DNA of 64,000 nucleotides from Candidatus Acidiferrales bacterium (lineage in GTDB: Bacteria > Desulfobacterota > Binatia > UBA9968): assembly GCA_035559995.1 (NCBI GenBank), contig DATMAM010000040.1:197452-261451 (forward strand), in the 5' to 3' direction. A model generated the notes under the pieces. The model made no database searches and was not told the origin of the DNA. It worked only from the letters and a program-made list of their open reading frames with translations. Below, piece by piece: positions 25,191 through 47,325 of this stretch. The position numbers and the translations under genes were made by a program. The first letter of the stretch is position 1. Every line of letters starts with the position of its first letter.

Positions 25191-25228
25191 CTTCCGCCGC
25201 GGCGGCCGTTAATCAGCGATAGCCACAT

Positions 25229-25302
25229 GGCGGTGTAGCTCAGTTGGTCAGAGCACGCGGCTCATATCCGCGGAGTCGACAGTTCGAGTCTGTCCACCGC
25301 CA
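25229..25302 (+). tRNA. tRNA-Met (anticodon CAT; elongator or Ile2-lysidine type)
   Basis: GGCGGTG...CACCGCC acceptor, anticodon loop CTCATAT, T-loop TTCGAGT; no encoded CCA; not initiator (1:72 paired, no GGG/CCC anticodon stem). Confidence 0.85.
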
Positions 25303-26444
25303 TCAATTTTTTCCTTTGATTCTCGCTCACTTACGCTGATCCCCCGCGCGAGATCCGCCAACGCTATCATGTCGTTTTTCGTCAGCCGCTGGGAGGATTC
25401 GGCGTCCGATTGGTATCCAAAATTGGCATCCACGCCTCCGAGATTCTGGACCGCCGAGCGCATTCGTTCCCACACGACGCGGGTGTACTTAGTCGTTGTC
25501 GCGAGGCTCTTGTGCCTGAGCAGGTGCATCATGGCGACCGGATCCCTGACCGACCTGGCCACCTCGTTGCAGAAATAGTCCCGGAGATCCTTCGGCACGA
25601 GCTTGATTCCGGTGAGTTTCTGGATCCGCTTGAACATCCAGCTTCGCCGGTACTGCTTCTTCCCTGTCTTGGGGTTCGGGAAAAGATACTCACTTTCCGG
25701 GAATCGCTTCATCTGCTCAGCGATGATCGGCCTTAGCACGGGCGCGATCGGCAAGAGATTGTAACTATCTTCCGTTTTCGTGCCACGTACGACGAGCCAA
25801 TTCCCCTTGGGGTCGATATCGATCTTGAGCACGCGGTTGGTTTCGTCCTTTCGAAGGCCGGTAAACCGCAGGAAGTCAAAGTACGCGCGATCATTGCCGT
25901 CCAGCGAAGCAGACGCCCGCTCGACGTCGTCCGGATCAAGCGGTGGCTTCACGACCTTTCGGTTCTTGATGAGAGAGAGATCCGCCCGCTCTACGGGATT
26001 CTCGCTCACCAGCCCTTCGCCCTTCGCCCAGTTGAACATCGACCTCAAATCGGTGACATAGTGCCAGATCGTCTGGTTGGTGACCTTGCGATCCTTGCGC
26101 TCCTTCTGCTTACGAATGAACCGCTCAACGTCTTTGTGCGTGATCGAATCAGCCAGGCTCTGCGCGCCGAAGAACGGGATCATGAAACGTTGAAAATTCC
26201 ACCTAAGAGCGTCCACCCTCCATTCCGATCTTCCTCGGAGCGCGCTCTCCACCAGGTACTGCGCGACCACCCGCTCGAATGCGTTCGGCGGAATCTTGGG
26301 CTTTGAGTCGAGCTCGTCGCAGAACTTCCTGTACGCCTTCTCAGCCTCGTCCCGTGTCTCCCAGGCGAAGCGCGCGTAGCGCTTCCCGGCTCGGTAAACC
26401 CGAAATCCCCACTTGCCCCGATTGCATCGATATTCGACTCCCAC
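25248..26444 (-). CDS. int: tyrosine-type site-specific integrase
   Basis: N-terminal AP2-like arm-binding domain (GKWGFRVYRAGKRYARFAWETRDEAEKAY), catalytic R..HLLRH..Y (HLLRHKSLATTTKYTRV); 3' end runs into tRNA-Met (att overlap). Confidence 0.9.
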   Translation of the reverse strand: MGVEYRCNRGKWGFRVYRAGKRYARFAWETRDEAEKAYRKFCDELDSKPKIPPNAFERVVAQYLVESALRGRSEWRVDALRWNFQRFMIPFFGAQSLADSITHKDVERFIRKQKERKDRKVTNQTIWHYVTDLRSMFNWAKGEGLVSENPVERADLSLIKNRKVVKPPLDPDDVERASASLDGNDRAYFDFLRFTGLRKDETNRVLKIDIDPKGNWLVVRGTKTEDSYNLLPIAPVLRPIIAEQMKRFPESEYLFPNPKTGKKQYRRSWMFKRIQKLTGIKLVPKDLRDYFCNEVARSVRDPVAMMHLLRHKSLATTTKYTRVVWERMRSAVQNLGGVDANFGYQSDAESSQRLTKNDMIALADLARGISVSERESKEKIDGGGQTRTVDSADMSRVL

Positions 26445-28313: not shown

Positions 28314-28606
28314 CCGGCCGTTCCTCCTTTGGGTCCACAAGCGGGAGCTCGAGCTGGCGGCCAACCGCTTCGCCGAAGTGTTTCAGGGCGTCGTTCCATA
28401 GCCCGTGCCGCTCAACGATGTTAGCGAACTCTTCGATGTCGTGTCCCTGCAGGATCCATCGCCTGCCTTTATCGCTGTGCTCGACAGAGCAGTGGCAGAG
28501 CTCGTGATCGAGCAGCGCGCGCCTTTTAGCCGTCGCGGCCTTTTCCCAGAAAGCGTTTGAGACGATTATTATGAAATCCGCTCGCGAGTAGTACCTGAGA
28601 AGCCCA
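28297..28606 (-). pseudogene. SprT-like zinc-metallopeptidase domain remnant (HELCH motif), no in-frame canonical start
   Basis: Unlisted frame: ...RRALLDHELCHCSVEH..GHDIEEF... matches SprT-like HExxH...GH..F; upstream in-frame TAG and only an out-of-frame ATG at ~28640. Confidence 0.35.
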
Positions 28607-29548: not shown

Positions 29549-30352
29549 TTACTCCAGCTTGGCTGTCGCTATCCTGAGCAGCGACCGCTTGACCTTATCG
29601 TCGGCTCCACGAGCGCGCTGCGCGGTCATGGAATTCCAATGCCGGCGAAGCCCCTCCATCGACAGCGTGTTGCCTGCCCAAAAGTCGTGGCCCATGGCCC
29701 AGTCGATCATCTCGGCGATAAGCTCGTAGCTGTGGCCATCGCGGCGGTGCATCAGCTCACAGACATGCGCCCATTTTGTTAGCTGCGCGGCCGTTGGCGG
29801 CGACCAGTCCGGCAGCCTCGCCTGAATCCGATCCACGAGCTTCTGCGTCAACTCGATCGCGCGCGGATCGGAGTCTTTTGTTGGTTGGTGACTGTTGGTT
29901 GGTGACTGTTGGTTGGTTGGTTGGTAGGCAGAATTTCGCCGCCGTTTGGCGGACAATTTCCGCCGTCGAGCGGACGCTCTATCTATGCGTTTTTTAATCA
30001 GATCTCCGCAGAAGTCTTGCCAGTCGTGTATCCACAGTCCCTGTTGATTGTCATTTTCCGCCAACCACGTTCCATCCACGTTCCTGCCACGAGCAGTTTT
30101 TTCGGTGTCCAGAAACCGCGCTTCAATGAGCGCGTTGATTAGCTGCTCCGGATCCGCGCCCCAACCGATGGCGCGCGCGATCTGGAGCTTTGAGAAGTTG
30201 GAGAGGTCTCCGTCTTGGGCGTAATCAATCGCCCACCACCACAGCATGTGAAGATAGCCGATCGCTTCGGGTCGGCTCATTTTGGTCAGTTCCATTAGCT
30301 TGTAGAGCTTTGGATGCTCTTTGAGCGATTGGTGCGATTCGATCCAGGCCAT
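29549..30352 (-). CDS. phage replisome-organizer / replication-initiator-like protein
   Basis: N-terminal WIESHQSLKEHPKLYKLMEL...AIGYLHMLWWWAIDYA...IARAIGW resembles phage replisome organizer N-terminal domain; contains iterons; start ATG 30352 or TTG 30367. Confidence 0.5.
   Translation of the reverse strand: MAWIESHQSLKEHPKLYKLMELTKMSRPEAIGYLHMLWWWAIDYAQDGDLSNFSKLQIARAIGWGADPEQLINALIEARFLDTEKTARGRNVDGTWLAENDNQQGLWIHDWQDFCGDLIKKRIDRASARRRKLSAKRRRNSAYQPTNQQSPTNSHQPTKDSDPRAIELTQKLVDRIQARLPDWSPPTAAQLTKWAHVCELMHRRDGHSYELIAEMIDWAMGHDFWAGNTLSMEGLRRHWNSMTAQRARGADDKVKRSLLRIATAKLE
29881..29924. repeat. iteron-like tandem direct repeats inside replication gene (TTGGTTGGTGACTG x2 + TTGGTTGGTTGGTTGG)
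   Basis: Perfect 14-bp duplication followed by (TTGG)4; encodes QPTNQQSPTNSHQPT linker. Confidence 0.6.
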
Positions 30353-30361
30353 AGCTTTCAG

Positions 30362-30395
30362 GTTCAAAAAGGGGGGGCCGCCAGTGGCCCCCCCT
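30362..30395 (-). terminator. rho-independent terminator-like hairpin (GGGGGGGCC-loop-GGCCCCCCC + TTTTTG) between ATPase and replisome-organizer genes
   Basis: Perfect 9-bp GC stem, 6-nt loop, T-run on minus strand. Confidence 0.55.
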
Positions 30396-32404: not shown

Positions 32405-32606
32405 CTGTCACCTCCTTTTTGAAATGTTTATAGTCCGGCTGCGCGGGCTCGATCCCAAAACTGACCAACAAGCCATCATCGGCGATCGCGTCGACATCCA
32501 GGGCGTCCACTAGATAACGCTCGCTTGCGGTGTCGCCCTGCTCGCGGCAATAGGCGAGCGCATCGAAGTAGTCGCGCCAGGAAACAAATAAGGCGTCTTT
32601 CATCAC
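32391..32606 (-). CDS. hypothetical small phage protein
   Basis: 71 aa, start overlaps upstream gene stop. Confidence 0.3.
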   Translation of the reverse strand: MMKDALFVSWRDYFDALAYCREQGDTASERYLVDALDVDAIADDGLLVSFGIEPAQPDYKHFKKEVTGGSR

Positions 32607-32965
32607 GAGCCGGTTTTGTTCGGTTGTCCTTGGTCCTCAGCGAGCTGGAGTATTTTTCTGATGGAGTTCATCTGCTCGTCGTTGATGAACACCCCGCCCA
32701 GCTCGCGCGCCAGCCAGTTGATCGTTTCGAGGGCCAAGTGCCCCTGGCCCTCCGTCACCATGATGTGAAGTAAATCCGCGGTCCGGTCGATCGGGTTTTC
32801 GCGGCCGGAAGGTTCAAACGGCAGATCCTCGTCGCGGCCGCTCCGCTCGCCCCACTTGTAGATGGTCGGCGGGGATAGGCGCATTCGGCCGGCAATCGCC
32901 TTGACGCCAATGGCTCTGATCAAGTCGGCGATGATCTCACTCGAGGGTCGGCGGATACGAGGCAT
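32603..32965 (-). CDS. phage HTH-type transcriptional regulator
   Basis: 120 aa; LSPPTIYKWGER HTH-like segment near N-terminus. Confidence 0.4.
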   Translation of the reverse strand: MPRIRRPSSEIIADLIRAIGVKAIAGRMRLSPPTIYKWGERSGRDEDLPFEPSGRENPIDRTADLLHIMVTEGQGHLALETINWLARELGGVFINDEQMNSIRKILQLAEDQGQPNKTGS

Positions 32966-33315: not shown

Positions 33316-33603
33316 GTGAAGAAGAAACCGGGACGAAAACCCAAGCCCACGCACGACCCGATTGCTCAAAGATTTCGCGAGCTTGCGGCGGGAAGATCAC
33401 GCAGGGTCATGGCGGGCCTGATCGGGTGCACCGAGCAGGAATGGGGAGCTTATGAGAACGGGCAGAAGCGCCCAGGATGGCATCGGATCGAGATTATCTG
33501 CACCCTCCTCGATATCTCGCCAAGCTGGCTCATGTTTGGGATCGGCCCCCCAAGGCTGAGCGCGCTCGCCGGAATCCCGAATGGCATTAAAAAAATATAC
33601 TGA
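33316..33603 (+). CDS. XRE-family HTH protein (Cro-like)
   Basis: RRVMAGLIGCTEQEWGAYENGQKRP HTH_3-like. Confidence 0.5.
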   Translation: MKKKPGRKPKPTHDPIAQRFRELAAGRSRRVMAGLIGCTEQEWGAYENGQKRPGWHRIEIICTLLDISPSWLMFGIGPPRLSALAGIPNGIKKIY

Positions 33604-33958
33604 TAGGAAAGTAGGAGAGAGGATCCGCGATGTGCGCGCTGGCCTGGGACTCACGCAGGAGGAGTTCGGGAGGCGCTTTGGCTATTCGCAGGACGCGGTA
33701 GCCAAGTGGGAAGGGGGTCAGGTGCCCCATGCGCTCGTGCTCCGTGAGATCGCCGCGACCGCGGCTAGGCCAACCACCGTAGATTGGCTGGTGGCGGCGC
33801 GGGCAAAGGATTCCGAGGCATTGACGCCCGACGAGCGTTTCCTCTTGAAATGCTTTCGCGACCTCGATAAAAGACGGCCGGAACTGGCAAGGGACCTTCT
33901 CAGCCTCTTCTCGGATCTGGCGGAGGAAAGAAAATCGAGACGCTACCAGAAAAGATAA
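33581..33958 (+). CDS. XRE-family HTH transcriptional regulator
   Basis: IRDVRAGLGLTQEEFGRRFGYSQDAVAKWEGGQ canonical HTH_3. Confidence 0.6.
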   Translation: MALKKYTDRKVGERIRDVRAGLGLTQEEFGRRFGYSQDAVAKWEGGQVPHALVLREIAATAARPTTVDWLVAARAKDSEALTPDERFLLKCFRDLDKRRPELARDLLSLFSDLAEERKSRRYQKR

Positions 33959-35971: not shown

Positions 35972-36358
35972 TTAGAAGCGCCTGAAGAGAGCAGTGATAC
36001 GCTTCAGCGCGCTATCGAGGCTCACGTTTCGGATGGTCAGAGTACGCGATCGTTGATAATCCATCGCGCCCTTTTTTCCCGGCCGCCGCCAGTGCTGCAG
36101 GATGACGGACACTGTCTCCTGCGGCCGCTCGTACACGCCGGCATCGCTCAGCTCGTTGCGGAATTCTGCGGCGATCTGCTGGTACACTGAGTCGAGATCG
36201 AACCCGCGGATGGTCAGGGTCTTAGAGCCGGCGTATACGAGAGTCTCCTTGCGGCGCTTCCGGTACTGAAATTGAATAGAGACGCTCTGGACGGGGCCTT
36301 CGTTCACATGGCCGTCATATAGGAAACCTATGGCATTGTCAAAGCCCAAAATGCTCAC
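35972..36358 (-). CDS. hypothetical phage protein with internal tandem duplication
   Basis: TLTIRGFDLDSVYQQIAAEF / TLTIRNVSLDSALKRITALF repeated halves. Confidence 0.35.
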   Translation of the reverse strand: MSILGFDNAIGFLYDGHVNEGPVQSVSIQFQYRKRRKETLVYAGSKTLTIRGFDLDSVYQQIAAEFRNELSDAGVYERPQETVSVILQHWRRPGKKGAMDYQRSRTLTIRNVSLDSALKRITALFRRF

Positions 36359-40002: not shown

Positions 40003-42093
40003 TCATGTGAGATAGTTTTTAAGCGGCACCACTTTGTGCTCGCCCAGATACACGCCGTCTTTCTGGACTTCCAAGGCAGCATAGACATCGCCGCTGCCTG
40101 AGAAACTGGGAATCGGCTTCGCTTTCGCGATCGCTTCCTGTAGTTCCTTCGTGACGGGGACGTTCATGGTCTGATAGTGAACCCCGCCTTCCGTCTTGAT
40201 CTGCACGTGGAGCATGTTGCTCTTGATCGTTGCGGCCGCGGCGGTCACCTTTTCCTTGCCGAGCGTTGTGGTGTCCAGGTCGGGAATGATCCACGTGTCT
40301 CCCTTCACGCCCTTGCCTGGCTTGCCGAGCTCGCTCTGCAGATGCTTGAACACTTCCGTTCTGGCTTCGTCGGTCACCTCCTTTTTCATGATTTCCAAGT
40401 ACAGCTTGGCGACACCCCATAGCCCCGCGCAGCGCCGTTGGCTGCCGTCGGGGAAGGTCACGAACCAAGGCTTGCCGGAAGGCATGTAAACAATCTTGAA
40501 CGGCCCGTACTCGCGCGGAGTGTCTTTGCTTGGGAGTTGGTCGGTCGACGCGCGCCCACGCTTCGTTTTGGCGCTCTCACTCGCCTTTTCGACTTCGGCC
40601 ATGAGCCCGTTGAACTCCGCCGGCGCCGTGCTGATCTGATAGACGTGGTGCATGATCGCGATCAGCGGCGAGGCGGGAGATTGCGCGGCGATATCGAACC
40701 AACCGGCGTAGATGAATTTGTTAAACCACCACCCGTTGTTGTGCGCGCAGTTGATCATCACGTTCAAAGCCTCGTTCACGTTCTTTAGGGCTTCCGGAGT
40801 TTTCTCGCGCACGAACCTCACGGTCGCGTTCCACAAATCGGCGGTGGCATCAGAGCACTTGCCCCAGGCCTTCCCGCCGTACCCCGGCCGCCACCCCTTC
40901 TCGTAAAATTTCTTGCGGATCTCGTTGAACTTCTGCACGCTCTCCCTGAGATTCGCCCATGCCTTGTCGTACACCTGATGCCGTGCGAGACCGTGTTTCT
41001 GCTTGTGACGGGCCTCACCGAAGCACGCCGCAAAGCCGAGTTTCAAGGCGAGCATCACGGCGACACCATAGAGGCGGCTTTCCTGCTTGCCGAAGTACGC
41101 TGAGTTGTGGAGAGCGCCGAGCACCAGCATCGCGGCCTCGCGGTAGCCAATCTGGTAGGTCACGCCGTAGGCGATTCCTTTGAGCACTTCCTCCACATCC
41201 TTTTGCGGGATTTCGACGGGAATCTTTTTCAGAGTCTCGCCGACCTTGACCTTGGAGCACATCGCCGGCGTCGTGACATAGGGAATGCCGTTATCCACGC
41301 AGTGCACGCCCCAGTGGGATGAGAGCGCGCCGCCAGGATGGACGACGACCGTGCCGGCCTTGAACTTTGCGCAGATCTCTTTCCACTCGAGCAGATCGCC
41401 GCGCGGCTTTTCGATCTTCGTCACCGTGACCGTCTTAGGAACGAAATCCGGACCCAACCCACTCACCTTCGGGCCGGAGCGAAGCTGGACGAGATAGATC
41501 GCGTCGCGCTTTTCGTTCTGGACGAATTCAAGATACGGCGCGTCGCCTTCCTTCACGCCCGCTTCGGTGAGAATCGCACGCTCGACCTTCTCGTCGTGAG
41601 CAAGAGGCGATTTGTCCGTGGTGCGGATGCTCGCAGCGGCCTTGCCACCCGTCGCGCCGTCATTGCCTTGGCCGACGGTGAGGACACCCGTTGTCCAGAT
41701 CGCGTTATGGCTGGACTTGATGTAGGGCATGAGCAGCATCTCCGCTTTGGGATCCGCCTTGCGCGCTTCCTTCCAGACCTTGAGCGCTTCCGCCTTGTTG
41801 TTGACCGGCCTGGAGTCCACAAACCCGTGCGCCGGCTTGACCGGGCACGGTCGCGCCATCGTGTTCGGTCCGATGGTCAGATAGGGATCCTCAAAATCGC
41901 TTTCCTCGCTCACCAGGCGGAACTGGAGAGTCCGGACCGCGTCCTCCAGGAATTTGAAATTTGCCTTATACTTCTGCAGGGCAACCAAGCCCTTTGCCTT
42001 TTGCGTTCGGGGTTCCACTGTCACGTCTCCTTTCTTCTGTTCGATTCCCAGTTCTTCGAAGGCATCCTGTACGTTCAGCACCATGAATTGCAT
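40003..42093 (-). CDS. large phage protein with PEP-utilising-enzyme-like phosphohistidine (mobile) domain motif
   Basis: VVVHPGGALSSHWGVHCVDNGIPYVTT parallels PEP-utiliser signature GG.TSH..I.ARE.GIPAVVG with identical SH-x8-GIP spacing; ~270 aa N-terminal and ~370 aa C-terminal regions, size like PEP synthase/rifampin-phosphotransferase-type enzymes. Confidence 0.45.
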   Translation of the reverse strand: MQFMVLNVQDAFEELGIEQKKGDVTVEPRTQKAKGLVALQKYKANFKFLEDAVRTLQFRLVSEESDFEDPYLTIGPNTMARPCPVKPAHGFVDSRPVNNKAEALKVWKEARKADPKAEMLLMPYIKSSHNAIWTTGVLTVGQGNDGATGGKAAASIRTTDKSPLAHDEKVERAILTEAGVKEGDAPYLEFVQNEKRDAIYLVQLRSGPKVSGLGPDFVPKTVTVTKIEKPRGDLLEWKEICAKFKAGTVVVHPGGALSSHWGVHCVDNGIPYVTTPAMCSKVKVGETLKKIPVEIPQKDVEEVLKGIAYGVTYQIGYREAAMLVLGALHNSAYFGKQESRLYGVAVMLALKLGFAACFGEARHKQKHGLARHQVYDKAWANLRESVQKFNEIRKKFYEKGWRPGYGGKAWGKCSDATADLWNATVRFVREKTPEALKNVNEALNVMINCAHNNGWWFNKFIYAGWFDIAAQSPASPLIAIMHHVYQISTAPAEFNGLMAEVEKASESAKTKRGRASTDQLPSKDTPREYGPFKIVYMPSGKPWFVTFPDGSQRRCAGLWGVAKLYLEIMKKEVTDEARTEVFKHLQSELGKPGKGVKGDTWIIPDLDTTTLGKEKVTAAAATIKSNMLHVQIKTEGGVHYQTMNVPVTKELQEAIAKAKPIPSFSGSGDVYAALEVQKDGVYLGEHKVVPLKNYLT

Positions 42094-42123: not shown

Positions 42124-42318
42124 CTAACAATCAAGCCGCCATCGCTTGCCGGCCGCGCGCTCGAGGAGCTCGCGCCGTTTGCTACGGTCCAGAGATCGGA
42201 GCCGGCGCGCAACGCGATCGCGGTAGTAGGTGGTGGTGTTGCCGTGCCGATTATTGATGCCAGCGACCCACGTTTTCGCATTGAGGACGCGGAAGGCGTC
42301 GCGGATTTTAGTTTTCAT
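42124..42318 (-). CDS. hypothetical small basic phage protein
   Basis: 64 aa. Confidence 0.3.
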   Translation of the reverse strand: MKTKIRDAFRVLNAKTWVAGINNRHGNTTTYYRDRVARRLRSLDRSKRRELLERAAGKRWRLDC

Positions 42319-42340: not shown

Positions 42341-42661
42341 TCACGCTGCCTTGCGCAGCTTCTCGATGTGCTTGCACTCTTCGTGGCGAAAGACGTAGGA
42401 CGGGCAACTGCAGACCCAAACCTTGCCGCGAACGCTGACCCGGTAAGTTTTGTCGGGATCGCTGAAGGACCGCACGGTGAACTGCCGGTCCCATTTCGTT
42501 TTTGGCTTGGCCTGCGGGACCGGCGCCTTGCTGCCGGAGCAAACCTTGCACGAGGGGACGTGAAGGTTCTTAAACCACTCGATCGTTTCCGGGCTCAGTT
42601 TTTCCTGTGCCTGCTGTGTCTTTAGCTTCTCAGCGGTTTTGCATCCTGATTTGAACTTCAT
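42341..42661 (-). CDS. SWIM zinc-finger protein
   Basis: C-terminal CxCx(n)CxH (VWVCSCPSYVFRHEECKHI); start at ATG 42661 with GAAGGAGA RBS. Confidence 0.5.
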   Translation of the reverse strand: MKFKSGCKTAEKLKTQQAQEKLSPETIEWFKNLHVPSCKVCSGSKAPVPQAKPKTKWDRQFTVRSFSDPDKTYRVSVRGKVWVCSCPSYVFRHEECKHIEKLRKAA

Positions 42662-43278
42662 TTGTTTCCGTCTCCTTCGTTTGTTCTGGAGCTGCGCGCG
42701 CGCTCGCCCGTTTCGGCCTGACGCGCACGCGCTCGCCCATTCCTTTTGCTTCGTGCCGTAGATGATCATTCAATCGTTTGCCGTTATCGCAGGTGATTGC
42801 CGACCTAGTGATTGTTCACCACCCAGCCACCTCCTCGGTGGACCTGCCCGCGACTGCGCGAGCCGGATCTGCGTCTTTGTTTTTGCCGGCGCATGGTCCG
42901 TAGGCTTATCAGGCAGTACAGACCAGCGGCGCCGACGTTTTCATTTCGCAGGGTGACTTGGTTCCATTTCCCTGCGCCCCGTTGGTAAGCGGAAAAGGTT
43001 TTGAAGGGAAAACTAAGGTGCGGATTCTAAAATAAGGTGCGTGCTTTACGTGCGGGGTTTACTTGGCGTGGGTTAGATTCAAGTGTTCGAGGATGCGTCC
43101 GTCAAAAAACCTTGCTCTTTTTTTTCCTTTTTCCTAATGCCTTCCGTGGCTTATCAGGCAAATGGAAGGCGACCTAGTGTTGACGGTCAATCTATTCAGG
43201 CCTACTGGCCAAGAATGCTAGAAGAGGAAAAAGGCCTTGAATCTGTCAGGAATTGCCTATGTCAAAGAACCAATAAGA

Positions 43279-43308
43279 ATCCTATGGGATTCCTATGGAA
43301 TTGTCAAG
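43279..43308 (-). promoter_or_regulatory. consensus sigma70 promoter (TTGACA-18-TAGGAT) driving leftward early/middle operon
   Basis: Minus-strand TTGACAattccataggaatcccaTAGGAT; ~600-nt leader precedes first gene (SWIM protein). Confidence 0.5.
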
Positions 43309-43395
43309 GGGCAAAGACGTTTTTTTGGACCGAAAAAGCCTGAAAAGATAAGGATTTTTTGGGATTTTAGGCGAGGGCCTTGGAGCAAGTCGGTT

Positions 43396-44049
43396 TTACA
43401 GTAGGCTTTCGTCTTTGGCTGGAGCGTTGGCGGCGCCGGGCGTTTCCTGGGCGTGTTTTTTCTTGGCGCGTTTGCTGTCGACAGATCCGGCCTTGGCGCG
43501 CTCGACGTGTTGGTAGGTGAGGCGCAGTTCGTCCGCGCGGGCCTTGTAAATGTCCTTGAACTGATCGGTCTTGTTTTCGATGTGGGAGGAGACCTTGTTG
43601 AAATGGTCCCAACCCCGGCCTTGCTGTTTTCCTTTGAGCGTGTGCTTGTCCAGGGCGTAGTCCGGCACCTCGAGCTTCAGATTCTTCTGGATCCGCTCCT
43701 GGTGGACGACGGTCAAGAAATTATCGGCGAGGCGGCTCTTCTCGGACCGGCACATGGCGAGGATGGCATTCGATAAACAGAGCAGCTCGCTGGCTTGGCC
43801 CGGCCGCGCGACCATTTCGAAGTACATCTCCTTCAGGCTGTGAACTAGCACGATGAGCTGGGGATTGGCCGGGCCGATGTCTTCGCAGGCAATCACTTGG
43901 AGGCGGTGCCACAGGTATTGCGGATAGACTTCTTCGAGCTCCAGGGCCCAGAACATCGCTTCCTCTTCCATGCCCCGGCGGATCGATTTCTGCAGGGCTG
44001 ACATGGCTTCACTCAGATGATAGCCGTTTCGTTTGGTCCGTAGGTCCAT
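43396..44049 (-). CDS. hypothetical 217-aa helical protein, moron-like (own promoter)
   Basis: Good RBS AAGGAA; preceded by consensus promoter in AT-rich spacer; no recognisable domain. Confidence 0.5.
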   Translation of the reverse strand: MDLRTKRNGYHLSEAMSALQKSIRRGMEEEAMFWALELEEVYPQYLWHRLQVIACEDIGPANPQLIVLVHSLKEMYFEMVARPGQASELLCLSNAILAMCRSEKSRLADNFLTVVHQERIQKNLKLEVPDYALDKHTLKGKQQGRGWDHFNKVSSHIENKTDQFKDIYKARADELRLTYQHVERAKAGSVDSKRAKKKHAQETPGAANAPAKDESLL

Positions 44050-44087: not shown

Positions 44088-44116
44088 ATCCTATAACTTT
44101 TTTATATAACGGTCAA
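44088..44116 (-). promoter_or_regulatory. consensus sigma70 promoter TTGACC-17-TAGGAT upstream of 217-aa gene
   Basis: Minus-strand TTGACCgttatataaaaaagttaTAGGAT in 95-bp AT-rich spacer. Confidence 0.55.
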
Positions 44117-44145: not shown

Positions 44146-45105
44146 TTAGGTGGCGTGGCCTTTGCCTTGCTGGCGTAGCAGGTCCTGGGCGTATGAGGCG
44201 ATCCCTGCGTTGGGATGGATCTTCGGCACCCAGCCGAGCAGGTACTTGGCGAGCGTGTGGTCGGCGAAGCAGTGGCGGATATCTCCGGGGCGCTTCTCGC
44301 CCGTATAGCGCGGGGTGATCTTCCCGTCGACCAGGTGCATCGAGAGCATGTTGGCGACAGCCTGCACGGGTAAGGGGATCCCGGTCCCGATGTTGATTGC
44401 GGCTTTGGGCCGGAAGAAGAGGGCGGCCTCGATGGCGGCCGCGACGTCTGAGACGTGGATGAAATCGCGGATCTGAAGACCGTCCTCGTAGATGACCGGC
44501 TGCTCGCCGGCCAGGAGCCTCGAGGCAAAGATCGCAACGACTCCCGTTTCGGCATTGGTGAGAGACTGTCCAGGTCCGTAGGTGTTGAACAGGCGAAGCG
44601 CCGTGACCGGGATGCCGTAGATCTCCCCGTTGATCCGGCAGAGCTGCTCGGTGTCGTACTTGGTCATGCCGTAAACCGAGGCCGGCCGGCACGCGTGCTC
44701 TTCCCTGACGCCGCGCGTTTCAAACCCTTCCCCGTAGACCGACATACTCGAAGCAACAATGATGTGCTGCACGCCGCCGGCGGCAACGATCGCCTGCATC
44801 AAAACGGCCGTTGCATAGCTGTTGGCCAGGACGAAGCGCGCGGGATCCTTTGCACTTTCCGAGACGCTCACACCGGCGGCCAGGTGGATGACGACGTCGC
44901 AGCCGCGGCAACACTCGAGTGTGGCTTCGTAGTTTTCAATCCGGTTAAGGAACACCAACCTAGCCCCGTCGACCATGGTATCCGGAGCTGGACCGTGCAC
45001 AACGGGCTCGAAGCAGTCCTGCACGACCACCTCGTGCTTTTTACCAAGCAGCCGCACAACGTGGCGCCCGATGAATCCGGCGCCTCCCGTAACGAGAATT
45101 CTCAT
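44146..45105 (-). CDS. NAD-dependent epimerase/dehydratase family protein (sugar-nucleotide epimerase-like)
   Basis: MRILVTGGAGFIG Rossmann start, SSMSVYG and catalytic YxxxK-type region; start ATG 45105 with GGGGGA RBS, overlaps upstream stop (ATGA). Confidence 0.8.
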   Translation of the reverse strand: MRILVTGGAGFIGRHVVRLLGKKHEVVVQDCFEPVVHGPAPDTMVDGARLVFLNRIENYEATLECCRGCDVVIHLAAGVSVSESAKDPARFVLANSYATAVLMQAIVAAGGVQHIIVASSMSVYGEGFETRGVREEHACRPASVYGMTKYDTEQLCRINGEIYGIPVTALRLFNTYGPGQSLTNAETGVVAIFASRLLAGEQPVIYEDGLQIRDFIHVSDVAAAIEAALFFRPKAAINIGTGIPLPVQAVANMLSMHLVDGKITPRYTGEKRPGDIRHCFADHTLAKYLLGWVPKIHPNAGIASYAQDLLRQQGKGHAT

Positions 45106-45851
45106 AGATCCCCCAATTCCAGTTTTTGCCGGCGGGCGACGTCCTTCACAACCATGCGCGTCACGCCTCCGGAGACCTGCTCCTGGAGGTAAGCTCCCCA
45201 CTTCCGCTTCAGGTAGTGGCGGTCCGCGCTCCAGCTCCCAGCCGAGATCGCGTGGCGGTTCCCGCCGGCGTTGGTCATGATCTGGTGCTCGAACATGAAG
45301 CGCGTATCCTGCCAGACGATACGGTCCTTGAGAAGTGCCTGCAGGGTGAGGTCGGCATCGGTGTTGTGGCTTAGCGCGGTGTCGGGGAGGAGCCGCCTGC
45401 CGACGAATCCCAAGCAGGGACCGTTTGCCTTGAGGAACCCGAAAGGGTCATAAGGAAAGAAATTGAGAATGTTCGGCGTGATCGCAAAGGAGAAGAGGCT
45501 CACGCCGATCCCCTCCGCGATCGAGGCAGCGTTGAAGATAATCCGGTAAACGGCGACCGGATCCGTGATCACACGCGCCTTGCGCCCGACCAGGCAGATC
45601 ACCCTCGAGACATCATCGTCGAAGATGACAACGCACTTCTCTTTCCGGTGCTCGAGGATCCAGCGCCGGACGCGCGAGACGCCGGCGACATCGTCCGGGT
45701 GGGTGGTAAGCGCGGCGCGAAACTCGCGGTAATCTTCCGCTTCGCTTTCGGCAACGCAGACCTCGGCCGATGGGACCAGGCGAAACGCGCGCCGGCACGA
45801 CTCCACGCGCTTTCGGCTGGGAATGACGATCCGGAGATCCTTCTCCGTCAC
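45102..45851 (-). CDS. putative GT-A-fold glycosyltransferase, paralog 1
   Basis: RIVIPSRKRVESC...VIFDDDV (DxD-like)...; 40-50% identical to adjacent paralog; GTG start overlapping paralog-2 stop (GTGA). Confidence 0.4.
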   Translation of the reverse strand: MTEKDLRIVIPSRKRVESCRRAFRLVPSAEVCVAESEAEDYREFRAALTTHPDDVAGVSRVRRWILEHRKEKCVVIFDDDVSRVICLVGRKARVITDPVAVYRIIFNAASIAEGIGVSLFSFAITPNILNFFPYDPFGFLKANGPCLGFVGRRLLPDTALSHNTDADLTLQALLKDRIVWQDTRFMFEHQIMTNAGGNRHAISAGSWSADRHYLKRKWGAYLQEQVSGGVTRMVVKDVARRQKLELGDL

Positions 45852-46591
45852 AACTCCAGATCCTGCTGGCGGGAAACACGTACTTTGAGGGACACCACCC
45901 GTTTCTGGTACCCGATCCCGATGTACTGTCCCCACTTCTGCTTTAGGTGCTTGAACTCGCGCTGGGTGTTCTCGACGCTTCTCGAGACCGTGTTGCCGCC
46001 GGCTTTGGTGATGAAGTTATGCTCGGCGGCGAAGCGAGAGTCCTGCCACACGATCCGCTCCTTGAGGAGCGCCTGCAAAGAGAGATCCACATCATCGAAT
46101 TGGGTCACCTCGGGATCATAGCGGATTTTTCGATCGAGAATCCCAAGAAGCGCCCCCTCGAGTCGGGTGAGTTGAAACGGCTTGTGCGGGCGGAACTTCC
46201 GCACATCGTCCTGGAAGGGATTGAAGGAGAAGCAACTGATGCCGAGCTCCTCGCAGATGTTCGCTGAGTTGAGGAGGATCCGCTCGATCGCGTGCGGATC
46301 CACGATCCGGCGGGGTCGGAAGCCGACCACGCAGTACAGGCTCCTCACGTCATCGTTGCACTGCACAATCACGCGCTCGTTGAAGTGATCGAGAATCCAC
46401 TGGCGAAGCCGCCCAAGACCGAAAATATCGTTGGGATGGGGAACGATCTTCGCCCCGATGTCCTTGTAATCCCCGAGCTCTTCTTCCGCGACGCACACCA
46501 CGGGATTTTTGAACAGCTTGACCGTCTGCGCGCAGCTCTCCACGCGCCGGCGGCTCGGTATCACGACGAGCATGTCTTTGGCCTCGATCAC
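45848..46591 (-). CDS. putative GT-A-fold glycosyltransferase, paralog 2
   Basis: MLVVIPSRRRVESC...VIVQCNDDV...; start overlaps ParB-like gene stop. Confidence 0.4.
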   Translation of the reverse strand: MIEAKDMLVVIPSRRRVESCAQTVKLFKNPVVCVAEEELGDYKDIGAKIVPHPNDIFGLGRLRQWILDHFNERVIVQCNDDVRSLYCVVGFRPRRIVDPHAIERILLNSANICEELGISCFSFNPFQDDVRKFRPHKPFQLTRLEGALLGILDRKIRYDPEVTQFDDVDLSLQALLKERIVWQDSRFAAEHNFITKAGGNTVSRSVENTQREFKHLKQKWGQYIGIGYQKRVVSLKVRVSRQQDLEL

Positions 46592-47325
46592 GCAGCGGCA
46601 CCTTTCTTGGCCGGCGTTTTTGCGGCCTGAGCGCGGGCCTCGAGCTCCTTTACCCGCTGCATGTACTTGGACCCGTTGATGACCCGCCCGACACCGATGG
46701 TTTTCTTTCCCACGTATCCCGGGACCTTCACTTTCTGCAGACCGAAATGATCCATCGCGGAAAGAAAGTCCCGGCTGTCCTTAAAAAAGACAACGATGTA
46801 ATCGTAATGCTCGTATGGGAGGAGGTCCATTTCTGGCGGGCCGGGGAGCTCGTCCTCGGGCTCCTCGAATCCGGATAGATGCGAACCATTTTCATCCATT
46901 CCGCCGCGCATCTGAAGATCAGCCTCTTGGCGAAGCGGGGCCATATTCAAGCTGTCGTAGAGGTCGGGCATCTGGCTTTCGAGTTCCTTGAGCAGGTTGC
47001 CCAGGAGCTGCTCGTCCCAGTCGCCCCCGACATTGGGGTTATTCAGCGTGATATTGAGCGCCTTCTCCTTCTCGATCGGAAGGTCCACAACCGAACATGG
47101 CACGGTTTTTTCGCCGCGCGCCTTCAGGATCTTGAAACGCTGGTGGCCGGAAACAAGGTTGCCGGTCCGCTTGTTCCACACGAGCGGCTCCACCAGGTCA
47201 AACTCGGCCAGGGATTGCTCGATGGTTTCGTACTCGTGCTCCCCGGGCTGGAGCTCGCGCCTGGGGTTGTACGGGGCCGGGTTGATCTTGCTCACCGGGA
47301 TATCCTGAAGGTTGATCTTTGCCAT
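46588..47325 (-). CDS. ParB/Srx-fold (ParB-like nuclease domain) protein
   Basis: INPAPYNPRREL...LVSGHQRFKI ParB N-terminal domain signature; acidic C-terminal region. Confidence 0.65.
   Translation of the reverse strand: MAKINLQDIPVSKINPAPYNPRRELQPGEHEYETIEQSLAEFDLVEPLVWNKRTGNLVSGHQRFKILKARGEKTVPCSVVDLPIEKEKALNITLNNPNVGGDWDEQLLGNLLKELESQMPDLYDSLNMAPLRQEADLQMRGGMDENGSHLSGFEEPEDELPGPPEMDLLPYEHYDYIVVFFKDSRDFLSAMDHFGLQKVKVPGYVGKKTIGVGRVINGSKYMQRVKELEARAQAAKTPAKKGAAA

Follow-up and report, generated by a model that had tools for sequence, protein, structure and literature searches.

The gap and its promoter

The 64 000-nucleotide (nt) stretch of contig DATMAM010000040.1 analyzed here (the window) carries a prophage that extends from a tRNA-Met gene (25228–25304) onward and is transcribed almost wholly from the minus strand. 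We examined a non-coding gap in this prophage, at positions 42662–43395 (734 nt), which contains a promoter followed by a predicted structured leader RNA. In the direction of transcription, the gap is succeeded by a gene for a SWIM-like protein, a gene for a protein of 696 amino acids (aa) and a PTP-like gene, and then by a plus-strand cI-like helix-turn-helix (HTH) gene, an O-like/DnaD-like replication initiator gene (29549–30367) and an integrase gene. The window belongs to a metagenome-assembled genome of Acidobacteriota. The protein encoded on the other side of the gap (43396–44049) is identical to one on a 'Candidatus Acidoferrales bacterium' contig.

A preliminary description of this locus had placed the start of the gap at 42770 and its size at 625 bp. 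According to the independent gene call in L001, which counts as the same member as the window, and to the homologue in the related locus L025 (MKFNSQCK), the first gene encodes 106 aa and begins with the ATG at 42661 rather than at 42769; the gap therefore has the borders given above, and the leader is ~610 nt long. The gap had also been described as AT-richer, and this is indeed the case: its G+C content is 0.51 (0.49 within the range given earlier), compared with 0.587 for the prophage part of the window.

Relatives of the gap were taken from contigs of soil or sediment metagenomes or of IMG/VR in which proteins closely homologous to the flanking ones are encoded. Synteny of the gap was observed in about ten related soil-metagenome phage contigs; each relative has an MgsA_C-like gene, after which come a gap of 620–980 nt, zero to four small variable genes and, last, the gene for a phosphoenolpyruvate (PEP)-synthase-like protein of 585–700 aa. 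The first gene past the leader encodes different proteins in different relatives. With the window as the query, nhmmer detected L022 (E = 2e-11), L005 (4e-9) and L002 (4e-5), and a profile built from the gaps detected L025 (E = 4e-78). The distinct full-length members are the window (= L001), L022 (with L008, a partial sequence of the same type), L005, L002, L006 (= L007), L025 and L077. L003 and L009 are partial members, and L023 is a divergent version.

The sigma-70-type promoter listed in Table 1 was the only promoter-like site between positions 42300 and 43800, and TTGnnn-17-TAnnnT was present at the homologous place in all nine of the related sequences. The TTGACA and TAGGAT hexamers had been reported in the preliminary description; their presence was borne out, and the spacer is 17 rather than 18 nt. 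In the comparative sense, the promoter is real, and transcription is predicted to start near position 43271. Three phased 11-nt repeats overlap the promoter and read TATAGGAATAA / TATAGAATTAG / TATAGAT in most relatives, and in L009 all three were altered in concert to GCATAT... The pattern YATAK-N6-YATAK occurred twice in the window, compared with an expectation of 0.04. The same promoter type, with a TTGAC-N17-TAKNNT layout and phased CYATAK repeats, is present at least three times in the prophage, and these sequence patterns suggest a phage-specific promoter class.

Upstream of the promoter, the relatives contain two to three copies of an A/T-rich motif, AAAAnCCCTTAnnnATCnnCTAnTTAnA, spaced by ~43 nt, and the window contains a single degenerate copy. 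An integration host factor (IHF)-binding site was defined as the consensus WATCAANNNNTTR plus an upstream A-tract. At the homologous position, L008, L022 and L023 match this consensus exactly, L023 with three such sites, and versions with one mismatch were found in other relatives; the copy in the window (43360–43338) does not match. Across all 35 loci, 5 of the 10 exact matches to the consensus lie within these few dozen upstream bases. The divergent L023 (2330–3177) keeps both the upstream IHF-consensus repeats and the promoter, and its leader is longer (~830 nt).

Table 1. Positions of the leader, its predicted helices, the promoters and the flanking gene groups in the window
Feature	Position	Strand	Remarks
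Predicted non-coding leader, ~610 nt; structured core roughly 43265–42769	42662..43272	−	Homology, no conserved open reading frame, covariation
Single degenerate copy of the A/T-rich motif upstream of the promoter	43338..43360	−	Alignments with relatives
Sigma-70-type promoter, TTGACA-17-TAGGAT	43279..43307	−	10/12 hexamer positions match the consensus
Three phased 11-nt direct repeats, CCATAGGAATC / CCATAGGATTC / TTATTGGTTCT	43266..43298	−	Cover spacer, -10 and start-site bases
Helix Ha, UUGAC (43265–43261) / GUCAA (43184–43180)	43180..43265	−	Same pairing in L022
10-bp helix CCUUUUUCCU (43234–43225) / AGGAAAAAGG (43135–43126) around the 5' domain	43126..43234	−	Inverted repeat, 100% complementary; minimum free energy (MFE) fold
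Hairpin CCUUCC/GGAAGG, 18-nt loop with UGCCUGAUAAGCC copy 1	43140..43169	−	MFE folds; window-specific
Hairpin D, CGCAGGG/CCCUGCG, 16-nt loop AAAUGGAACCAAGUCA, then GAAAUGAAA	42947..42976	−	Most conserved element
Inserted hairpin H8, GUCGGCGC..GCGCCGGC, inner GGUCUGUA/UACGGACC, UGCCUGAUAAGCC copy 2 in the loop	42885..42936	−	
Hairpin H9, CCACC/GGUGG	42827..42841	−	CCACA/UGUGG in L006; CCAUC/GAUGG in L025; CCACG/CGUGG in L077
Hairpin H10, GGUGA/UCACU	42807..42820	−	GAUCG/CGAUC in L006 and L025; three compensatory positions
Hairpin H11, UAGGU/ACCUG, loop CGGCAAUC	42790..42807	−	UGGCC/GGCCA in L022, L006 and L025; three compensatory positions
Candidate H-type pseudoknot, H11 loop GGCAAUC (42801–42795) / GAUUG(AA) (42775–42769)	42769..42801	−	5 bp in the window
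G+C-rich hairpin just before the ribosome-binding site, no U-tract after it	42688..42738	−	Similar hairpins in L025 and L005
Shine–Dalgarno (SD) sequence AAGGAG and ATG of the 106-aa CxC..CxH (SWIM-like) gene	SD 42677–42672, ATG 42661–42659	−	ATG ten nt past the SD sequence
Second promoter of the same type, TTGACC-17-TAGGAT, ahead of the MgsA_C-like gene	44088..44116	−	Homologous promoters with CYATAK repeats in L025 and L006
Third promoter-like site, TTGACA then phased CCATAG / CTATAT / CCATGT	36300..36342	−	Pattern match
Tail chaperone, tape measure, tail proteins, endolysin	63–48 kb	−	
ParB_N-like, two TET-associated glycosyltransferase-like, nucleoside diphosphate (NDP)-sugar epimerase and MgsA_C/RarA-C-like genes	47.3–43.4 kb	−	

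Covariation in the predicted leader

Past the promoter, the gap is conserved over 450–600 nt, with conserved blocks interleaved with variable insertions. The members fall into two subgroups with dissimilar 5' domains; all members have an RNA strand rich in A and poor in U. No conserved open reading frame (ORF) was found, as all six frames are broken by stop codons and the translated similarity between relatives switches frame. A missed protein-coding gene was accordingly rejected, because no ORF is conserved in frame among the relatives.

We computed a consensus fold with RNAalifold from a MAFFT alignment of five relatives and obtained 88 pairs in 15 helices, with 93.8% of the cells paired. 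At 31 of the 88 pairs, both sides had changed, compared with 14.0 ± 2.5 pairs when the 3' partners were shuffled (0 of 500 shuffles reached 31) and with 1–11 pairs in controls with slid partners. In an alignment of four sequences, 19 pairs were compensatory, compared with 8.8 ± 2.1. The fold contains long-range helices; for example, all pairs covary in one 5-bp helix that spans ~150 nt. When the window was included in an alignment of seven sequences, four hairpins were obtained, and 12 of their 22 pairs were compensatory. Because loop lengths differ among the members, the stems of the 3' domain are out of register in the MAFFT alignment, and the formal pair count on the four-sequence alignment of this domain was replaced by a hand-registered table together with a model-fitted alignment. 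The latter showed 16 compensatory pairs out of 32, compared with 4.8 ± 1.8, although this alignment leans towards the model.

A covariance model (R1) built from L006, L025 and L022 only gave a single hit in the 64-kb window, at 42858–43003 on the minus strand (25.6 bits, E = 2e-7). It also detected L005 (4e-13), L002 (1e-10) and L077 (8e-66); owing to the short calibration, all of these E-values are rough. The preliminary description had proposed a long structured leader fed by the promoter, together with a covariance and RNA-structure search of the transcript. The covariation tests support such a leader, and the search revealed helices that are kept by compensatory changes, and a model from which the window was absent recovered it.

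Individual helices could be followed between the window and its relatives. Helix Ha corresponds to helix 1 of the five-relative fold, in which five of seven pairs are compensatory; its equivalents are CUUGACG/CGUCAAG in L002, CCGUUGG/CCAACGG in L006 and CCGUAGG/CCUACGG in L025 and L003, and a further form among the relatives is CCGUCGG/CCGGCGG. The purine tract of the 10-bp helix is analogous to AGGAAAAG/CUUUUCCU of the relatives, which form helix 4 of the same fold. The stem of hairpin D covaries, with CGGAG/CUCCG and CGGCU/AGCCG in other members and GAGAGAG/CUCUCUC in L023. Hairpins D, H9, H10 and H11 are collinear, are perfectly paired in the window and show compensatory differences from the relatives. 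The site of H8 is occupied by unrelated hairpins in L005 and L002 and is empty in L022, L006 and L025. For H11, RNAalifold offered a long-range alternative (GGCCGGA/UCUGGCC), which is invariant in one subgroup and cannot form in L022 or the window; we rejected it in favor of the local hairpin, because the latter shows compensatory changes. The candidate pseudoknot appears as helix 5 in the model-fitted alignment. In its full form, GGCAAUC of the H11 loop would pair with a GAUUGCC further downstream. It would comprise 7 bp in L006, GGCGAUC/GAUCGCU in L025, where the change is compensatory, and a partner GAUUGUU with two G-U pairs in L022.

Several minor observations concern hairpin D. Its loop GGAACCAA (42958–42965) could form 8 bp with the bases predicted to be transcribed first, UUGGUUCU (43266–43273), and in L022 and L005 the same pairing is found in the same register, with an apparent swap from U-A to A-U. 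This complementarity is statistically no better than that of other windows of the same RNAs, and we kept it as a lead. A short peptide encoded inside hairpin D was rejected, as the ATG is absent in three members. In L023, the stem of the hairpin is fully replaced (GUGAGAGAG/CUCUCUCAC), the MgsA_C-like gene has moved downstream, and internal tandem repeats of the leader are annotated as an 85-aa ORF.

The preliminary description had listed a number of repeats, a palindrome and a hairpin in the gap and had considered repeated operators for a phage regulator as one possible reading. All of these motifs exist in the sequence. The 13-mer GGCTTATCAGGCA occurs exactly at 42903–42915 and 43148–43160 and nowhere else in the window, and the copies lengthen to 18/19 nt with one indel; by our own arithmetic, ~0.004 exact 13-mer pairs are expected in 734 nt. 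The 10-mer CGACCTAGTG occurs at 42801–42810 and 43170–43179. Its two exact copies are among six matches with up to one mismatch, where 1.9 are expected, and the pair by itself is weak evidence and not significant. The palindrome TTGACGGTCAA (43180–43190) is not enriched in the window and is kept in L022 and L008. The remaining motifs are the hairpin CCTTCC-18-GGAAGG and the 11-nt tandem units at the promoter (both in Table 1). The 13-mer, the 10-mer and the palindrome are not repeated in the gaps of the relatives.

We then compared the positions of these motifs with the predicted fold. Both RNA copies of the 13-mer (UGCCUGAUAAGCC) lie in hairpin loops and run into the first bases of the 3' stem, and at the positions of these two hairpins the relatives have unrelated hairpins or none. 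The arrangement looks like one hairpin module that was inserted twice, in the phage of the window only. The second copy of CACTAGGTCG (copy 2 of the 10-mer) comprises the 3' strand of H10 and the 5' strand of H11. In both the window and L022, UUGAC at the 5' end of the predicted RNA has as its partner the GUCAA that makes up one half of the palindrome. As judged from these comparisons, most of the listed motifs appear to be stems and loops of an RNA rather than operators. The reading as operators is retained for the 11-nt promoter units, which are conserved and recur at two other promoters, but not for most of the motifs past the promoter; in other words, the tandem units seem to be the only repeats that behave as a conserved element at the DNA level.

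We further searched for additional members of the leader family. A blastn search of the gap against phage records gave no match, no viral contigs with an MgsA_C-like protein were found, and two DNA patterns for hairpin D gave 0 matches in the viral and genome collections. A relaxed hairpin-D pattern and a 16-mer of block B recovered only a contig that was already known (L037 = L025), the other 40 matches being unrelated. A search of genome contigs with the alignment of the 696-aa protein gave none, and a scan of metagenomes yielded two partial members only. Because the pattern scans of viral and genome collections added nothing, the family seems to be rare in the reachable data. A general link between the RNA and the family of 600–700-aa proteins was rejected, as distant phages with that gene have neither the gap nor a match to the model.

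Interpretation of the leader and competing explanations

The best reading of these comparisons is that the leader represents a new family of structured RNAs found in a narrow clade of Acidobacteriota soil phages. We regard it as moderately probable that a transcription unit of a temperate Acidobacteriota phage has its control region and 5' leader in the gap, and that the leader acts in cis. Neither a second promoter nor an intrinsic minus-strand terminator was found between 43270 and 42661; therefore, the RNA, if made, would be the 5' leader of the operon. RNA polymerase would start near 43271 and transcribe the minus strand, and the folded leader would act on its own operon, from the SWIM-like gene and the gene for the PEP-synthase-like 696-aa protein onward. 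The fold might shield the ~600-nt untranslated stretch from premature termination or decay, and the leader, together with the G+C-rich hairpin near the SD sequence (42738–42688), might determine how the first gene is processed and translated. The 11-bp repeats could be the DNA site at which a phage or host factor switches this class of promoters. A cis-acting leader is the most economical reading, for which we infer both the function and the transcribed strand. The minus strand is favored only by the conservation of the promoter, by the genes reading in the same direction and by a composition rich in A and poor in U.

Several observations weigh against a leader acting in cis. The reverse complement of the alignment folds equally well (87 pairs, 28 compensatory; −70.4 versus −68.8 kcal/mol), and the RNAfold z-scores of the two strands are alike (−2.4 and −2.9), so that z-scores of single sequences are uninformative. 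The excess of G-U over A-C (33 to 11) is biased by the strand used for the prediction. Moreover, the independent sequences are few (about 8–9), and no single consensus fold that covers the 5' half of the window's leader was obtained. We found no pair of terminator and antiterminator in the leader, and no element of it indicates a specific cis mechanism. Only the window contains a C-rich, G-poor stretch (28 C and 8 G in 78 nt), and the idea of a Rho-utilization site was rejected on this ground. The first transcribed bases, GGUUCUUUGACAUA, resemble a boxA of the lambda or rrn (antitermination leader) type, which we take to be GCUCUUUAACAA, or UGUUCUUUGAAAA in Bacillus, and the likeness of the 5' end depends on this assumed consensus; the bases occur in one subgroup only (the window, L022, L008 and L005) and are not enriched in the window. 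Finally, the RNA far exceeds the size of any phage antitermination or attenuation element known to us.

We also compared the leader with described RNA families and regulatory systems; by position its nearest analogues are the lambda N leader and HK022 put, by size and prophage habitat ROOL and GOLLD, and for the promoter repeats the P2-type direct-repeat operators. At the gathering threshold, Rfam 15 identified two tRNAs only in the window. The best match of the gap in a permissive scan was SCARNA15, with 29 bits against a gathering score of 65, and a scan of six related loci gave 0 hits at E ≤ 0.5. The Rfam scan suggested in the preliminary description thus assigned the gap to no described family, and a full-text search of the literature found no description of such an element. 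Among known RNAs, the large ROOL and GOLLD are frequently encoded in prophages and assemble from RNA alone (PMC12286853). Like the leader, they are A-rich, multi-helix non-coding RNAs (ncRNAs) of 0.5–0.8 kb in phages or prophages (RF03087, RF01998; PMC5737381, PMC12286853). However, the leader gave no match to their covariance models at E ≤ 0.5–10, belongs to another host phylum, is not located beside tRNAs and is a predicted promoter-driven operon leader.

The leader of the lambda pL-N transcript (nutL boxA/boxB and an RNase III hairpin ahead of the N ribosome-binding site) is likewise a promoter-proximal, untranslated leader of a long phage operon, with a hairpin before the first SD sequence, but it measures ~220 nt compared with ~610 nt here, where the prediction comprises ten or more helices plus a candidate pseudoknot. 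No short pentaloop hairpin resembling boxB was seen in the leader, and no N-like gene was identified, although no search aimed at an N protein was made. The put RNA of HK022, a cis-acting antiterminator next to the early promoters on their downstream side, consists of ~70 nt with two stem-loops. Similar to the leader, it is structured, directly follows a phage promoter and could, with no protein involved, affect the complex that transcribes it; the leader is seven times larger and shows no detectable similarity to it, and no terminators that it would have to override were seen. As for the promoter repeats, they recall the immunity operators of P2-type phages, which are short direct repeats phased by about one or two helical turns and overlapping the -10 element of the early promoter; the repeats described here differ in number, with three 11-bp units that each look like a -10 element, and are found at three or more promoters of the same direction.

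The RNA may also have a job of its own. The core would then be a stable, trans-acting or self-assembling large ncRNA cut from the leader, which serves in protein binding or as a decoy or scaffold, roles of the sort suspected for ROOL and GOLLD, and the downstream mRNA would be a by-product of shared transcription. We consider this unlikely but far from negligible, and it stays alive because the size and complexity of the core are well beyond those of known phage leader elements. The core of 450–530 nt, with many helices, long-range pairs and a candidate pseudoknot, exceeds the needs of a cis-acting leader and is kept regardless of the gene that follows. In the window and in L005, L022 and L025, 65–140 nt lie between the end of the core and the first gene, and the G+C-rich hairpin that the window shares with L025 and L005 might either be where processing occurs or stabilize the released mRNA; the duplicated 13-nt hairpin loop of the window would suit a ligand-binding module. 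However, the core and the genes are not set apart by any terminator or second promoter, neither the window nor the six relatives match ROOL, GOLLD or any other family in Rfam, and processing is pure conjecture. The element is further confined to one narrow phage clade and is missing from distant phages that have the same 600–700-aa gene. It is similarly doubtful, yet conceivable, that the core belongs to an undescribed class of ornate, pseudoknotted phage RNAs of ~0.5 kb whose function extends beyond cis regulation, as a scaffold for a protein or ligand or as a self-assembling RNA in the manner of ROOL and GOLLD; its carriers would be temperate phages of uncultivated soil Acidobacteriota, and a dedicated class of phage promoters would drive it.

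The gap could instead be a regulatory hub at the DNA level only, with repressor or activator sites and IHF sites, in which the conservation downstream of the promoter would reflect protein-binding sites such as roadblock operators. The phased 11-bp repeats at three promoters and their concerted change in L009, the clustering of IHF-consensus matches upstream of the promoter in the relatives, the palindrome TTGAC-N-GTCAA kept in the window and in L022/L008, and the cI-like HTH gene at 33581–33958 are all compatible with such a hub. Operators that are not conserved do not decide the matter, because heteroimmune relatives are expected to differ in their operators. Sites for DNA-binding proteins do not explain, however, why paired positions change together over tens to hundreds of nt, and the 13-mer and 10-mer repeats occur twice each, inside the leader only, with no counterparts in relatives. 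We therefore regard a hub of this kind as improbable. Still less probable is the replication or packaging site raised in the preliminary description, be it an origin, a single-strand initiation site or a packaging site with hairpins formed in DNA. The gap is relatively A/T-rich with direct repeats, IHF-like sites and hairpins, the covariation is equally good on both strands, and ParB_N-like and RarA-C-like genes are located upstream. However, an origin in the gap is unlikely because the initiator gene bears its own iteron-like repeats, tandem 14-mers at 29879–29920, 13 kb from the gap; a packaging site is unlikely because the neighboring late genes encode tail and lysis (endolysin) functions, the terminase being beyond the window. 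The repeats of the gap also belong to a conserved promoter that is found at other genes. An iteron-type origin, which would have three or more iterons at or inside the initiator gene and an A/T-rich unwinding region, was rejected for the gap on account of the distance to the initiator gene and of the tandem 14-mers within that gene. We give the lowest credence of all to an immunity RNA such as CI of P4 or C4 of P1, or to stoperators as in mycobacteriophages, for which the 13-mers would be target or operator sites. Two identical 13-mers in the same orientation in the promoter-proximal leader of a temperate prophage would fit this idea, but the 13-mer has no complement on the same strand, the best candidate (28592–28604) having two mismatches, which is at chance level. 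Stoperators of the L5 type are many asymmetric 13-bp sites across the genome in one orientation, whereas only two copies exist here, both in the leader, and the relatives have no equivalent repeats.

Large structured RNAs of unknown role are rare, several known ones (ROOL and GOLLD) sit in prophages, and experimental genetics hardly exists for the phylum and the phage group of the present candidate. With its clear promoter, its defined borders and covariation sufficient for building a model, the leader is open to searches of soil metagenomes and metatranscriptomes and to probing in vitro. The family has few members and is well suited to pipelines for RNA discovery. The three phased 11-bp repeats resembling -10 elements could help to map the transcription program of these phages.

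Prophage genes around the gap

One end of the prophage is the tRNA-Met attachment site, and the other end is outside the window. The integrase ORF (25248–26444, minus strand) ends within the tRNA-Met gene (25228–25304), which lies on the plus strand. The cI-like gene (33581–33958), which matches HTH_31/HTH_3, is the sole clear plus-strand gene of the prophage and is faced by a minus-strand gene (32603–32965) with a weak match to HTH_23. The two genes probably form the lysogeny switch and provide candidates for the regulator of the promoter repeats.

The interior of the initiator gene is the classical place of a lambdoid origin. Within the O-like/DnaD-like gene of this prophage, which lies on the minus strand, TGTTGGTTGGTGAC is repeated in tandem at 29879–29920 (read on the plus strand), two of the copies being exact and a third partial. 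The array resembles iterons and is likely to be a phage origin.

Upstream of the gap, a minus-strand cluster at 44146–47325 encodes a ParB_N-like protein, two TET-associated-glycosyltransferase-like proteins and an NDP-sugar epimerase/dehydratase, and is followed by a protein with MgsA_C only. Its composition suggests a module for DNA hypermodification of the glycosyl type, and a TET/JBP oxygenase was not identified within the window. Downstream of the gap, the 696-aa protein (40003–42093, minus strand) has no sequence match in Pfam, PHROG or the PDB, and more than 170 homologues were found in phage-like contigs. Its AlphaFold model (predicted local distance difference test score, 79.6) is similar to PEP synthase, rifampin phosphotransferase, pyruvate phosphate dikinase and ATP-grasp enzymes, and a GGxxSH motif (HPGGTMSSHYAVHC) is consistent with a swivel phosphohistidine domain. 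The protein may be a phage phosphotransferase that is tied to the DNA-modification genes.

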